Source: Eledone cirrhosa (taxonomy: Eukaryota). From it: a stretch of DNA of 64,000 nucleotides. Both the position numbers and the translations under genes were made by a program. Shown here one piece after another: positions 25,511 to 56,049 of this stretch (within the stretch, counting starts at the first letter, position 1; every line of letters begins with the position of its first letter). The notes below the pieces were generated by a model that saw nothing but the letters and a program-made list of their open reading frames with translations, had not been told where the DNA came from and did not search any database. The stretch covers positions 180,792,001-180,856,000 of the forward strand of contig OZ024742.1 in NCBI GenBank assembly GCA_964016885.1, in the 5' to 3' direction.

Positions 25511-26492
25511 GCGGCGATGAATTAGTTTAGCGAGGTTTTTTTATATGAAATCGTGTGTCGAAACAAGTATTGTTACACTTGGGGAGGGTCATATTTGTGT
25601 AATATTGCCAGAATTAATAACAGAACACACTCACTGTTTGGTTGGTTTTCGCTTCTCGCTGTCTTTTATATCTATATATGTATATATATATATATATATA
25701 TATATATATGTATATATGTGTATATATATATATATATATATAGCGGCGATGAATTAGTTTAGCGAGGTTTTTTTTATATGAAATCGTGTGTCGAAACAAA
25801 TATTGTTACACTTGGGGAGGGGCATATTTGTGTAATATTGCCAGAATTAATAACAGAACACACTCACTGTTTGGTTGGTTTTCGCTTCTCGCTGTCTTTT
25901 ATATCTATATATGTATATATATATATATATATATATATATATGTATATATGTGTATATATATATATATATATATAGCGGCGATGAATTAGTTTAGCGAGG
26001 TTTTTTTTATATGAAATCGTGTGTCGAAACAAATATTGTTATACTTGGGGAGGGTCATATTTGTGTAATATTGCCAGAATTAATAACAGAACACACTCAC
26101 TGTTTGGTTGGTTTTCGCTTCTCGCTGTCTTTTATATCTGCGATCTAACTTAATCGGTCCTCAATGTTGCCATTGACTGACCGACAGACTGAATAAAAAA
26201 TGGCGTAGATATACAACACAACAGGAGGAAAAAATATAACACCACTGACGATGTTGCAGATGTGCAACGAAAGATTTATGTAAATTATGTAAACTATATA
26301 TATGTGTTTGTGTCTATGTTGTATCTGTATTATTTTTGACCGTCGGTCAGTCAATGGCAACATTGAGGACCGATTAAGTTAGATCGCAGATATAAAAGAC
26401 AGCGAGAAGCGAAAACCAACCAAACAGTGAGTGTGTTCTGTTATTAATTCTGGCAATATTACACAAATATGACCCTCCCCAAGTATAACAAT
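25511..26492. mobile_element. Non-autonomous PLE-pLTR-like element: three ~233-bp tandem units separated by (TA)n, the last extended into a fold-back (arms ~26034-26185 and ~26342-26492)
   Basis: gcggcgatgaattagtttagcgagg at 25511, 25743 and 25976; inverted arms near-identical; hammerhead core in the spacer. Confidence 0.85.
26236..26290 (+). ncRNA. Hammerhead ribozyme core, family B (stems I/III degenerate in this copy)
   Basis: CUGACGA-U-GUUGCA-gaug-UGCAAC-GAAA at 26245-26272. Confidence 0.6.
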
Positions 26493-26960
26493 ATATATAT
26501 ATATATATATATATATATATATATATATATATATATATATATATATGTGTGTGTATATATGTATATATATATATATATATATGTGTATATATATGTATAT
26601 ATATTTATATATGTGTGTATATATATATATATATATATATATGTATATATGTGTATATGTGTATATATATATATATATGTATATATATATATATGTATAT
26701 ATGTATATATATATATATATATATCTATATATGTATATATATATGTATATATGTATATATATATGTATATATATATGTATATATGTATGTATATATATAT
26801 ATGTATATATATATATATATGTATATATATATATGTATATATATATATATATATATATATATATATATATATGTATATATGTATATATATATATATGCAT
26901 ATGTATATATATATATAAATATGTATATATATATATACATATATACATATATATATATAT
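26492..26960. repeat. (TA)n/(TG) compound microsatellite
   Basis: Direct reading; source of the YI-rich ORFs. Confidence 0.98.
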
Positions 26961-27162
26961 ACAAGCAAATTATGAACGTAAACATGAAACGGTGCGTGAC
27001 TTTAAAATTAGAAATTAGAAATTATAAGCTTTCACCGTATTTTAGACTAAAGAAATTTCTAGCCTGATAGTGGGGTTTATAACCCTCGGAGAAATGGAAA
27101 AAGATGAGTGTTGCCGTATATATATATATAGATATATACATATATGTATATGTATATATATA

Positions 27163-27450
27163 TGTTATACTTGGTGAGGGTCATATTTGTGTAATAATAT
27201 TGCCAGAATTAATAACAGAACACACTCACTGTTTTGTTGGTTTTCGCTTTTCGCTTCTGTGTCTTTTATATCGGTTATTTAATTTATTCGGTCCTCAATG
27301 TTGCCATTGACTGACCAACAGTCAAAAATACAGATACAATATAGACACAAACACATATATATAGTCTATCAAAGTTCTTTCGTTGCACATCTGCAACATC
27401 GTCAGTGGTGCTATTGTTTCCTCCCGTATCGTATGTCTACGCCATCTTTA
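27163..27450 (-). mobile_element. Second copy of the family-B pLTR-like element, with hammerhead fold at ~27362-27415 (minus)
   Basis: Minus strand reads CCA-CUGACGA-U-GUUGCA-gaug-UGCAAC-GAAAG-AA-CUU-UGAUAG; flanks align with 26040-26340. Confidence 0.8.
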
Positions 27451-27677
27451 TTTAGTCTGTTTATATATTTATTTATTTGTTTATTTTTTTTGTCTTCTTT
27501 GCGCATGTGTTTCCGTGTGTGTATAGTGTTTTGTTTAATGTGTGTTCGTGTTTGGGTGACTGTGTATTGGTTAATGTATTCTATCTTTACTAGTGTGTGT
27601 TTATATGTGTTTGTTGTTATTGTGCTTGTGTATGTATTTATTTATTTATCTATTTATTTATATATCATTTTTTTTTT

Positions 27678-52249: not shown

Positions 52250-54400
52250 ATATGTATATCTATATGTATATGTATATGTGTGTATTGTATGTGTATCTGT
52301 ATGTATATTTATGTGACTATATATGTATGTATGTGTATATATATGTGTATATATATATATATATATATATGTGTATATGTATGTATATGTATATGTGTAT
52401 GTATATGTATGTGTATGCGTATTAATTTTGATTTTTATTTGCATATAATTATATTATGCTATTGATGAAATACAATATCTGCTTTATGTATTGTATACCT
52501 AATTAACATATACTAATTAACGTATACTATTGAAATAAATATATAATTTTTAATTTAGTTAACATATAATTTATATGCTACTACCGATGTAATACTTTAT
52601 TTTATTTTTATTTGGATTTATTTTCCCTATTACTAAATTCATCTCCTAATATTGATACCATAACGTTATTAACTTTAATTTAGTTATAATGTAATTAATA
52701 ATCTACTACTGTTTGACTTCATAATTTTGCTTCAAATATTATAAACCTAACTAATTTACACCTTGGAAATCAATATGTCTACTATCTTTGGTTTAGTTAA
52801 CATATGATTAATGGTATACTTTTTTATTTTGGGATGCATAGATTTCGTATTTCCTAGCACTGAAAATATGTAAGAACATACATTGAATTAAGATACGGAA
52901 AATATTATATGTTTCTTGAAACATATATTTACTTTGATCCCCTTCTCCAAACCCCCCCTTTCCCCCATACTATTATCATCTGTTTTTGTAAGAGTATATG
53001 TATGAATATATGTGTAGGTGTGTGTCTATATAGGTTTTGGTATTTATTTCTAAATATAAAAATACATATATGAGCATGTAAATATGAATGTAAGATTGAG
53101 TGTGTATATATGATTGTACATACATATGTATGTATATATATGTATATATATGTATTATATATGTATGTGTATGTGAATGTGTGGTATGTATATGTGTATG
53201 TATATGTATATATGTGTATGTATGTGTATGCTTGTATATAGGAAAATATATATATGTGTATATATGTATATATTTGTATATGCGTGGTTGTATGTATGTG
53301 TATATGGGTTCTGTATATATTCGTATGTCTCTCTATTTATATGTTTATCTTCGTATCTATGTGATATATGTGTGTGTGTGTGCATATATGCATATCTATG
53401 TGTTTGTGTGTGTTTGTATGTGTGTGTGTGTATATATATATGTATTTGCGCACACTCACATACACATATATATATATATGTATATGTGAGTGTGTATGTG
53501 TGTCTGTGTGTGTGTGTGTGTGTGTATGTGTATATATATGTGTATATATGTGTATGTATGTATGTGTATATATGTAGATATATATATATATATATATATA
53601 TATATATATATATGTGTATATGCGTATCTATGTGTGAATATATGTCTTTATTCGTATGTGTATATTTATGTATGTATATGTTTAGGTGTATGTATGTATG
53701 TGTATATATGTGTGTGTATATATATATGTATATGTATATATGTATATGTGTGTATATATGTATATATATATATATATATTATTCTTTATTATTATTGTAA
53801 TATAACTTATGTGTATATGTGTATAAGTGAGGTTGTGTATGTATATATACTATGTGTATATATAAGAGTAATGAAATATATATATATATATATATATATA
53901 TATGTGCATGTCTGTTTTTTATGTGTGTGTGTATATATATATGTGTATGTGTATATATGTGTATATATATATATATATATGTGTACGTGTGTGTATGTGG
54001 ATATATATATATATATATATATATATACATGTGGGTGTTTGTATGTATATTTATGGTGGTATGAGTGTGGGGATATATATGTTTGTATATATATATGTAT
54101 ATGTATATATATATATATATGAGTCTATGTGTGTGTGTATATATATGTATATATATATATATATATATATATATATGTGTATGTGTGTATGTGTTGCGCG
54201 TGAGTGTGTGTGTATTTATATCTTTTTATATGTGTATGTGTATGTTCGTGTAAATGTATGTGTGTGTATGACAGTATAGGTATGTGTGTATGTATGTATG
54301 TGTTGATATCTCTATGTGCGCGTACATGTATGTATGTGTATGTATATCTGTATGTGTATGTACATTTATTATATTTTATTGTTTTTATTTTTATTTTTTT
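52250..54400. repeat. Compound (TA)/(TG)/(TATG) microsatellite region inside the PLE 3' UTR
   Basis: Lies between the ORF stop (51778) and the 3' pLTR (54493). Confidence 0.9.
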
Positions 54401-54943
54401 ATTTTTCTTAATTTATAGATACATTTATTTTAGGCTGTCTGGTCTGACAATCTAATACTGACCCTTCCCCCCCCTCCCACCTAATTTCTGTATCTTGATC
54501 TTGAAATGTGTGTACCAGTGTTTTTATGTGAGTGACTTAATTTCTATTTGCTTATGATTTTATATCCACATATATAAATGTGAGTGGGGGAGTGTGTGTG
54601 TTTGTATGTTCGTGGTTATGTGTATATTTATGCATATACGCACATGTATGTGTGATTATACTGATATGTGTGAGTATGAAAAAAATATATTTATATGCTT
54701 GACTCCATAAGTATCTTTGCGTATCTTATCAGCGCATTAAGCTTACAGAGATATTAACCTTGAAATTTTGTGTTTACATCCATCTTTTTAGTATACACAT
54801 ACAAATTATACACACATTATTGTAAAATATGTGTAAGGTTTTTGCATGTATATACACACACCAAACTGCTTTTAACCCTTTGTGTTTTCATTGGTCAATT
54901 TTGAACTGACATTTTGAATTGTTGTTATTATCAATAAATATAC

Positions 54944-55098
54944 TTCATTATTTCTGAAGACGGCGTATATATGAGTTAGGTATGTATATTTAATCTTGAT
55001 AATTTGTATAATTTTGTATAATTTTGTACATAGATCTGTTAAATATGCATACCAATTATAACACATATATGCCCTAGAAACGATCGTTAAATAGTGAA
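54944..55098 (+). ncRNA. Type I hammerhead ribozyme with greatly extended stem II (family A, in the PLE 3' pLTR)
   Basis: UUCAUUAUUU-CUGAAGA-[~115-nt hairpin]-GAA-ACGAUCGU-U-AAAUAGUGAA: 10-bp stem I, palindromic stem III, GUU triplet (cut after 55088). Confidence 0.8.
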
Positions 55099-56049
55099 CT
55101 TTTTTTGTTTAATATAAGGAATTGTTTGTTCATTATTTGTTTAATATTTTATATATATATATATATATATATATATATATATATAAATATATATATATAT
55201 ATATATATAAATATATATATATATATATAAATATATATATATATATATATATATATATATATATTTATATATATATATATATATATATATAAATATATCC
55301 CCTTTCACTAGCACTCCTTAATAGTTATTCTCACCTCAGATAACTTGCTAGACAAAATGTCAGGAGGACCTTTCTGTTGTGTCAAATATATGATAACCTT
55401 CCTAGTTCTGGTGATTTACACAATAAACACACCCAGTACATGCTGTAAAGTGGTTAGTGATATGAAGTGCATTCGGCCGTAGAAATCTTACATAAACAAA
55501 AGGTTGGGAGGATCCTCAGTTGTGTCAAAGGCATGACAACCTCTCCTGAGGACTTGATGGAATGTGAGACTACACATAAGCGAGACACAGGTCCCTGGCC
55601 TGTCTGGGAGATCAGGGACTCTGCTTCAGTACTGACTTGGTGTGTATGGACTGTCCAACCCTTGCCAGTAGGAAAAGCTGACATTACAATGATGATGATG
55701 ATGGTAACAAGGGTAATTGGTGGGAAATTATGCCAAGAATTACCAATATCAATGTGGTTCAACAATAAACAAAGAGAACAAACCTATCCAATTGAAGTGT
55801 ATTATATTTGGAGTCAAGAATAAAAACATTTTGGTAAACAAATCCAGAAAACAATTTATTTAAACAATAAATTTATTTAAACAATAAATCCTAGAATACT
55901 GAAGGAATTCAAGCCATTTTTCTTACATGTGTTTCAACAAAGGAAATGCAAACAAATATGATAAATGGAAGTTTTTGGTTAAGCTGCATTATATTATATA
56001 GGAGTAAATCTATATATTAAGATACAAGCATAAAACTGAATATTCCACT

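Follow-up and report, generated by a model that had tools for sequence, protein, structure and literature searches.

Sequences of five families (A, B, C, D and F) in the window analysed here, a stretch of 64,000 nucleotides from Eledone cirrhosa (contig OZ024742.1), probably correspond to the 3' ends of several different endonuclease-bearing Penelope-like elements (PLEs), the short stubs being truncated products of insertion. Families A, B, C and D, with 11 copies in the window, carry type I hammerhead motifs and are unrelated in sequence: when segments from five families were compared pair by pair, none of the 10 comparisons exceeded a z of 2.0. A preliminary description of this DNA had placed hammerhead-shaped motifs of these four unrelated families at the sites at which we find them. 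The features are as follows.

12854-12934, plus strand: decayed PLE endonuclease-like C-terminus, E-A-x-x-I-x4-P-x-L-N (motif level)
12980-13291, plus strand: B13, the oldest B copy, about 70% identical; core at 13081, plus strand
25511-25975, minus strand: two copies in tandem of a 233-nt unit comprising the B tail and 3' end, with (TA)n; ribozyme absent
25976-26490, fold-back: B26; tail about 25976-26036, inverted arm 26037-26185 (149/149 identical), sense copy 26184-26490 with core at 26245, plus strand
27166-27630, minus strand: B27, a single longer copy; core at 27405, minus strand
28915-29826, fold-back: C; arms 28915-29236 and 29438-29759 with a microsatellite-rich centre, cores at 29003 (minus) and 29671 (plus), tail 29760-29826
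31107-31482, fold-back: D31; cores at 31205 (minus) and 31335 (plus), tail 31434-31482
45982-46535, fold-back: B46; long minus arm with tail and core at 46243 (minus), short plus arm 46289-46535, into which another repeat (46391-46492) is inserted
46589-46790, minus strand: F, a single stub with a (TA)n run on either side; core at 46654 (covariance model E 0.025)
46863-47050, minus strand: D47, a single older copy with tail; core at 47010, minus strand
49112-49244, minus strand: putative one-sided 3' tail of A, 133 nt, on the inverted arm only
49245-49904, minus strand: inverted, 5'-truncated copy of the A 3' end, joined directly to the ORF; core at 49443, minus strand
49905-51778, plus strand: RT and GIY-YIG frame of A, 5'-truncated, assigned by motifs to the Hydra clade; YRDD, CxCx5C linker, CxxC/E/N/CxH end
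51779-54492, plus strand: 2.7-kb AT- and microsatellite-rich stretch of A, from the stop codon to the terminal arm
54493-55152, plus strand: A 3' end, followed by (TA)n; core at 54954, plus strand

Hammerhead motifs and their predicted folds

A descriptor tuned with the present motifs in view gave seven matches in the window; 40 block-wise dinucleotide shuffles averaged 0.2 (maximum 2). An independent covariance model, trained solely on 32 hammerheads, all from Hydra-like metagenome loci, yielded 24 matches in the window, the top five being the two copies of C (E 3e-4) and the three copies of D (E 0.002-0.013); there was no match to the A and B cores with this model. On the basis of the shuffles and the independent model, the hammerhead motifs are not due to chance. 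None of the Rfam hammerhead families matched C or D at E<=10, and in the Rfam search of the whole window hammerheads were absent from the best 150 of 240 matches, the only models recovered being those of miRNAs on microsatellites. Since the independent model does find C and D, we take their absence from the Rfam results to reflect a poor fit of the Rfam models.

The boxes (CUGANGA and GAAA) and the UH site reported for all four families, together with helices I and II, were recovered in both copies of A, both of C and all three of D, but B departs from this pattern. Its helix I consists of 2 firm pairs, followed by a mismatch in three of the four copies, and the core of B13 is broken, lacking both G8 and G12. 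Across the four copies of B, helix II shows two compensatory pairs, and 23 of 500 shuffles scored as high. The A hammerhead has a 10-bp helix I, a 116-nt helix II region, a palindromic helix III and a GUU site, and folds unaided to the three-way junction (z -5.46; 0/200 shuffles). The site is GUA in C and AUA in D. The cuts are predicted after 29716 (C), 31383 (D) and 55088 (A), and the RNA 5' ends previously predicted at 29717, 31384 and 55089 are thus correctly positioned.

A fifth hammerhead family, F, with a palindromic helix III and a GUU site, had been overlooked in the preliminary description. We rejected a candidate at 20.3 kb because of its fold (z -0.11), and did not count a motif of hammerhead shape within the arms at 2.4-3.3 kb, which has C at both G8 and G12 and lacks fold or model support.

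Among the minimal hammerheads of metazoan PLEs, pairs on opposite strands separated by 100-700 bp have been described and attributed to truncated PLEs (Cervera and De la Pena 2014, PMC4209133). The motifs reported here resemble them in their intact core boxes, long helix II and short or palindromic helix III, and in the presence of many families per genome, mostly as single motifs from truncated PLEs, with opposite-strand pairs; the 2-bp helix I of B recalls the D. virilis variant (PMC4209133). By contrast, the base of helix II in C and D is U-A or A-U rather than G10.1-C11.1, and helix II of A is far longer than the 7-8 bp described in that study.

It is highly improbable that the stubs make up a self-cleaving RNA system that is active in the host transcriptome and cuts RNAs of the host or of the elements at these sites. 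The intact core boxes and plausible helices retained by A, C and D would be consistent with such activity, but in whole-stub folds of C and D31 the ribozyme cores are fully paired with their own antisense arm, the hammerhead junction is not the most stable state in monomer folds of B, C and D, and a dimer partner cannot come from inverted copies. Minimal PLE hammerheads from elsewhere did not cleave as monomers, and did so at a low level as dimers (PMC4209133), and 8 of 9 retrozyme dimers tested in the literature were inactive. The dense self-cleaving RNA system proposed previously is not supported.

Fold-back architecture and (TA)n flanks

The fold-back architecture described earlier as common to the four families was found, in a head-to-head arrangement, at five of the eight loci (A, B26, B46, C and D31), whereas B27, B13 and D47 are single arms. 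The ribozyme is present in both arms only in A, C and D31. (TA)n flanks were observed at 12 of 14 outer ends (from 8 loci, two being tandem duplicates), compared with 9 of 76 for other repeats and 234 of 5000 positions chosen at random, in agreement with the proposed enrichment; B13 and D47 lack TA flanks. One-sided tails were found in A, B, C and D, with the B and D tails each recurring at a second locus and the C and A tails each occurring once; the A tail is called putative because it was seen once. The distance from 5' end to core varies among copies (about 19, 45, 61, >230 and 461 nt), and the 5' truncation points differ between copies in both B and D; they do not cluster 8-12 nt ahead of the core.

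The inverted copies, one-sided tails, variable 5' ends and TA bias bear out the earlier view of these sequences as PLE products inserted in TA microsatellites. Insertions of endonuclease-bearing PLEs likewise have a head-to-head inverted terminal copy and, optionally, a one-sided tail (Arkhipova et al. 2013, PMC3846280; Craig 2021). They differ from those described here in that most of our loci are stubs without an ORF, and our tails, of 49-133 nt, exceed the described 30-40 nt, a point against an origin from truncated PLEs. Target-site duplications are unreadable here because the target is (TA)n.

Assembly artefacts, or palindromes unrelated to PLEs bearing chance hammerhead motifs, would be an extremely improbable source of the fold-backs. 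The self-complementary (TA)n poses difficulties for assembly, the arms of B26 are 100% identical and Rfam gave no hammerhead match, all of which would fit such an explanation. However, the arms differ in D31 (115/118 identical) and in C, one arm of B46 carries a later insertion, the strand-switch joints of B are present in raw reads, and chance is rejected by the shuffles and the independent model.

Coding remnants of A and upstream of B13

Among the fold-backs, A is indeed the only one to enclose a coding frame, as stated earlier, but an endonuclease-like ORF end directly precedes the single arm B13. A is, by its motifs, a 5'-truncated PLE of the Hydra clade. Its frame lacks about 200 N-terminal residues, the match beginning at residue 206 of homologue P0002, and the RWK and DKT N-terminal motifs of the homologue consensus belong to the region missing by 5' truncation. 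The YRDD motif is located at residue 167 and the CxCx5C linker, present in 116 of the 120 homologues listed, at residues 494-502; C581, C584, E587, N600, C609 and H611 are near-invariant among homologues. An endonuclease profile built from homologues matches 51.3-51.8 kb (E 3e-49), and homologue P0110 carries Pfam GIY-YIG. In total, 820 homologues were identified among 8000 scored candidates, the best named one being from Argonauta hians. None of 596 candidate stretches was confirmed in a single-protein metagenome scan, and none of 11 viral contigs.

The frame also contains an N/K/T-rich insert of about 100 aa. The left and right arms of A are identical at 659 of 660 positions, the stop-to-ribozyme gap is 3.2 kb, the ORF remnant to 3' end measures 5.2 kb and the whole element about 6 kb. 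The 2.7-kb stretch after the stop codon may be a long 3' UTR or captured host DNA. An alignment of the A 3' spacer with the upstream part of C (z 4.8) was set aside as low-complexity.

Hydra clade PLEs, among them an octopus family, have a (TA)n preference and hammerheads, a CxCx5C linker, and CxxC and CxH motifs flanking a conserved E and N; they are generally <3 kb, a tendency that is not diagnostic, and for one Repbase member an inverted copy with 5' truncation is mentioned (Craig et al. 2021, PMC8557442). A shares with this clade the C-terminal GIY-YIG, the linker and the CxxC and CxH motifs around E and N, together with a 3' type I hammerhead, palindromic helix III and insertion in (TA)n; compared by eye, Hydra-1_Obim is a different family. 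A differs from the clade in its 5' truncation, its length (the 5.2 kb do not fit the <3 kb tendency), its pre-ribozyme gap, its helix II region and its N-rich insert. A long spacer before the 3' terminal repeat is also found in Pen1_Av, and N-rich ORF inserts in other PLEs (PMC3846280; Craig 2021). Among 77 Hydra-like metagenome loci, the hammerhead lies 66-326 nt past the ORF match in 39 of the 52 with >=200 nt downstream, 32 loci having served to train the model. Of the 14 loci that have an inverted repeat, several hold an inverted 3'-end copy at the 5' side. The gap and the 116-nt helix II region of A lie far outside these loci (helix II region 12-29 nt), which counts against the truncated-PLE reading. 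Beyond Craig 2021, no cephalopod PLE hammerheads were found in the literature covered, most subscription papers and Repbase being outside the search.

The endonuclease-like C-terminus near B13 ends with a stop at 12932, about 150 nt before the B13 core. The pattern E[AG]xx[IVL]x4Px[LI]N, picked after the sequence was seen, has its sole match in the six window frames immediately 5' of B13, in the same orientation, with 0.007 matches per shuffled window (150 shuffles); a relaxed pattern was matched in 2 of 5000 local shuffles. For this stretch, Pfam returned no families in three frames (12.7-12.9 kb), phmmer no matches among 1.84 billion proteins, tblastn with 19 cestode PLE proteins none there, and profile searches nothing significant. 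It therefore remains a motif-level lead.

Origin of the stubs

B is very repetitive. Within the 541-nt B27 stretch covered by the read evidence, matches were found for 437,189 of 12,467,656 RAD records, to which restriction-site bias applies, and in 5,823 and 6,350 contigs from two runs of one sample. The upstream part of B27 (27500-27600) is also repetitive in reads. Summed contig depth (X1) was about 1e6 over the ribozyme and, going upstream, 0.3e6, 0.15e6 and 0.08e6, although depth does not equal copy number and B27 indels or skipped repeats cause part of this fall. Six of the 15 joints listed switch strand, at differing places, each opposite-strand joint resting on one read start, and a (TA)n loose end at the B 3' terminus was found in 22 contigs.

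B, C and D had been proposed to be either heavily truncated or ribozyme-only, non-autonomous, retrozyme-like products. The first of these fits better; the second is unsupported, as there are no tandem same-strand hammerheads in the window and the 5' ends vary. Other observations that do not favour the second are B reaching at least 200 nt farther upstream in reads, the oldest B copy adjoining an endonuclease-like end, and fold-backs without a hammerhead (at least one, at 29881-30056, with TA on both sides); the 233-nt tandem at 25.5-26.2 kb also ends short of the ribozyme. Non-LTR retrozymes (Cervera and De la Pena 2020, PMC7229834; Li et al. 2026, bioRxiv 10.64898/2026.07.22.740005) resemble B-D in lacking an ORF and spanning a few hundred bases, and share the type I hammerhead and PLE ancestry, but they have tandem direct repeats, a ribozyme per unit and circular RNA, whereas the ribozymes here are single or inverted.

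We consider it quite unlikely that young B, or else C or D, constitutes a genuinely non-autonomous family, with an RNA that lacks an ORF, derives from a PLE terminal repeat, is independently transcribed and is copied in trans by PLE protein. The extreme repetition of B in reads would be in keeping with it, as would literature in which PLE terminal repeats act in trans and retrozymes descend from them. Among the 40 of 48 rows listed, there is no variant of >=10% in 27376-27410 (core boxes and helix II), which suggests selection on donors; however, such selection is equally expected with autonomous donors, and the same variant table has two other variant-free gaps, of 25-28 nt. A fixed 5' end is absent, as are tandem hammerheads, and, since B27 stops about where an ORF would begin, its non-coding upstream part is no proof of ORF loss. 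It is likewise unlikely that young B is an ORF-less, PLE-dependent, SINE-like retroelement of very high copy number, with its 2-bp-helix-I hammerhead under selection, seeding TA microsatellites with perfect hairpins. In that case these hairpins and the stubs of C and D type would supply dsRNA throughout the genome, feeding A-to-I editing or small RNAs, and would silence their own ribozyme.

For truncated PLEs, the preferred origin, a proven parent ORF is lacking for B, C, D and F; we infer the priming mechanism, the parent ORFs of B-D and any cleavage. Under the known PLE model, the GIY-YIG nuclease of the element would nick a (TA)n tract and the RT would copy the RNA from its 3' end, usually halting once a few hundred bases had been made. 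Another copy, primed separately, would start 50-130 nt inside or outside the first, leaving a one-sided tail, and the joining of the two copies head to head would produce the fold-back. Its position, within about 35-230 nt of the element 3' end, would explain why the hammerhead is retained in the stubs. The role of the hammerhead would be in the parent element, where, as hypothesised in the literature, it probably trims precursor RNA, possibly as a dimer. The stubs would be dead-on-arrival by-products, and C and D31, if read through, would give long dsRNA hiding the ribozyme.

PLE hammerheads, (TA)n targeting and opposite-strand pairs are already known, and there is no new ribozyme class or mobile system here; the new details are the helix II region and post-ORF gap of A and the hammerhead stub at 46.6 kb. 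Given a very long helix II and a helix I of 10 bp, the A hammerhead offers an easy test of tolerance to large insertions in PLE ribozymes. For annotation, the gain is several unannotated PLE families in an AT-rich animal genome, in which short PLE stubs would be overlooked or filed as foldback elements. The five families, within about 45 kb, provide clean examples of arms, tails and junctions for how PLEs make inverted ends.

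Hammerhead motifs in four repeat families

The window is AT-rich animal DNA, dense in microsatellites and LINE fragments. Eleven hammerhead-shaped motifs were found within it, in four repeat families (A–D) among which pairwise comparison revealed no relatedness. The core positions of these motifs, a single stub (a short 5'-truncated 3' end) of a further family and other repeats are:

54954 (+) and 49443 (-): family A motifs
26245 (+), 27405 (-), 46243 (-) and 13081 (+): family B motifs
29671 (+) and 29003 (-): family C motifs
31335 (+), 31205 (-) and 47010 (-): family D motifs
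46589-46790 (-): family F, a lone hammerhead stub with a (TA)n run on either side (covariance model, E 0.025)
36578-39400, 28097-28745, 61371-61858 and 32376-34949: LINE fragments
15491-16099 (29-nt units) and 63099-63393 (37-nt units): tandem arrays

A hammerhead descriptor, tuned with the window motifs in view, gave seven matches, versus a mean of 0.2 across 40 shuffles. For an unbiased test, a covariance model was built on 32 hammerheads from 77 metagenome loci related to ORF A, the RT and GIY-YIG frame of family A (49905..51778, +). The five best of its 24 window matches were the two C and three D motifs, and the sixth was the new F stub (46619-46660, E 0.025). Neither A, with a helix II region of 116 nt, nor B, with a helix I of 2 bp, was recovered by this model; the unconstrained fold of A gives a hammerhead junction (z -5.46). 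Rfam models yielded no hammerhead, either for C and D at E<=10 or among the best 150 of 240 whole-window matches. The preliminary description is confirmed in placing hammerheads in unrelated families.

A further Penelope-like element (PLE; window 1-3260, minus strand) has RT fragments matching cestode Penelope-type proteins (E 5e-15) and inverted arms (2415-2759 and 2916-3260, 324/345 identical) with the outer end at TA. Each arm carries a hammerhead-shaped motif that has C at G8 and G12 and lacks fold or model support, and was left out of the count. A weak candidate at 10898-10965 (E 0.15, covariance model), followed by a short TA run, may be an old stub from some other family. The LINE fragment at 36578-39400 has endonuclease, RT and PHD-like matches. 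A GC-richer structured stretch (30790-31040), which we take to resemble a non-LTR retrotransposon 3' end, adjoins D31, the D copy near 31 kb, on its left.

Fold-back shape and (TA)n flanks

Of the 14 outer ends, 12 abut (TA)n, compared with 9 of 76 ends belonging to other repeats and 234 of 5000 positions taken at random, confirming the proposed flank enrichment. The arm-spacer-arm design, described as common to the families, was found at five of the eight loci and is not universal, a ribozyme being present in both arms at three loci only. Families B, C and D bear the same marks as A minus the ORF: arms head to head, with their 3' ends pointing out into (TA)n, and a one-sided tail (about 60 nt in B, 67 nt in C and 49 nt in D), with the B and D tails present again at a second locus each.

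The distance from 5' end to core varies (about 19 nt in the plus-strand D31 arm, 45 in B46, 61 in B26, more than 230 in C and 461 in the A arm), two B arms end before reaching the ribozyme, and the fold-back at 29881-30056, flanked by TA on either side, lacks one. The hammerhead is thus carried along close to the 3' end and does not define the module. One B46 arm contains an inserted piece of a dispersed repeat (46391-46492), with other copies near 6.3, 14.2, 56.1, 56.3 and 62.2 kb. Five further palindromes lack a hammerhead (39855-40108, with TA on one side, 19994-20272, 62958-63022, 19324-19381 and 25149-25192); some of the six hammerhead-free palindromes (these five and 29881-30056) may be PLE stubs that ended before the ribozyme.

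The parent element of family A and a probable parent frame of family B

ORF A (634 residues, with about 200 N-terminal residues missing) had 820 homologues among 8000 scored candidates, the single one assigned to an animal being from Argonauta hians; this homologue and the base composition suggest that the window is cephalopod-like. It has YRDD, a CxCx5C linker and a CxxC/E/N/CxH end, features that Craig et al. (PMC8557442) ascribe to the Hydra clade, along with hammerheads and a near-universal preference for inserting into (TA)n. An inverted 660-nt arm, 659/660 identical to the right arm, is fused directly at the ORF break. Together, the motifs, the missing N-terminus and this arm identify A as a young Hydra insertion, truncated at its 5' end, that carries an inverted copy of its 3' end and a tail of 133 nt. 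Two of its features are atypical among Hydra-like relatives: its ribozyme lies 3.18 kb past the stop codon, whereas 39 of the 52 metagenome relatives that could be assessed have theirs 66-326 nt beyond the ORF match (32 loci had trained the model), and its 116-nt helix II region compares with 12-29 nt in 25 downstream hits. A long spacer and N-rich ORF inserts are reported for rotifer Penelope elements (PMC3846280), which A resembles in both respects; the in-frame insert at 50760-51075 (about 100 residues) is rich in N, K, T, S and H. In two Hydra-like metagenome loci (L029 2373-2548, L054 2166-2470), the first hammerhead is closely followed downstream by another on the other strand, a tail-to-tail arrangement absent from the window.

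B is a very repetitive family. Reads on B27 came from four of 18 listed runs; its contigs numbered 5,823 and 6,350 in two runs of one sample and 9 in another organism, and it matched 437,189 of 12,467,656 RAD records, subject to restriction-site bias. Depth, which does not equal copy number, falls stepwise upstream of the B27 core, yet reaches about 27600, some 200 nt before it. Strand switches occurred in 6 of 15 joints listed of 54, at differing places and with one read start each. At 27376-27410, no variant of at least 10% appeared among the 40 of 48 rows listed, and the helix I mismatch remains.

B27 and B13, the oldest B copy, have common sequence back to about 12980. Directly before B13, a frame ending at 12932 shows the E-A-x-x-I-x4-P-x-L-N spacing seen at the ends of Penelope, Poseidon and Nematis endonucleases (Figure S7, PMC8557442). 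This pattern, chosen post hoc after the sequence had been seen, has its sole match in six frames of the window there (chance 0.007 per shuffled window); a relaxed form of it was matched in 2 of 5000 local shuffles. For this stretch, neither Pfam nor phmmer nor tblastn gave a hit, and profile searches gave none of significance. The frame is probably the parent ORF of B, and it seems rather unlikely that B is a truly non-autonomous, very abundant family. No comparable endonuclease-like frame was found for C or D.

Origin of the fold-backs and fate of the ribozyme

The fold-backs and stubs most likely arose as by-products when several PLE families copied themselves by target priming. A nick in a (TA)n tract would be followed by copying of a short cDNA from the RNA 3' end, and a second cDNA would be joined to the first, head to head; the ribozyme's role would belong to the parent RNA. 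We infer both the priming steps and the cleavage in this model. Within stubs the ribozyme is probably silent, since the core of C and of D31 is base-paired to its own antisense arm when the whole stub is folded, monomer folds of B, C and D do not favour the active hammerhead, and minimal PLE hammerheads are reported to cut poorly in vitro (PMC4209133).

Retrozymes are described as requiring tandem ribozymes on the same strand (PMC7229834; bioRxiv 10.64898/2026.07.22.740005), whereas no such tandem was found in the window families, the 233-nt B tandem at 25.5 kb being ribozyme-free; the suggestion that B–D are retrozyme-like is not supported. Dual minimal hammerheads on opposite strands, 100-700 bp apart, are already known, and most minimal motifs have been interpreted as truncated PLEs (Cervera and De la Pena 2014, PMC4209133). 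Inverted copies and tails are described as standard for PLEs (PMC3846280, PMC8557442); PMC8969392 also belongs to the literature compared. Our literature search turned up no publication other than Craig 2021 (PMC8557442) that deals with hammerheads of cephalopod PLEs. The pattern is real, yet its members add to an already known type of PLE hammerhead.
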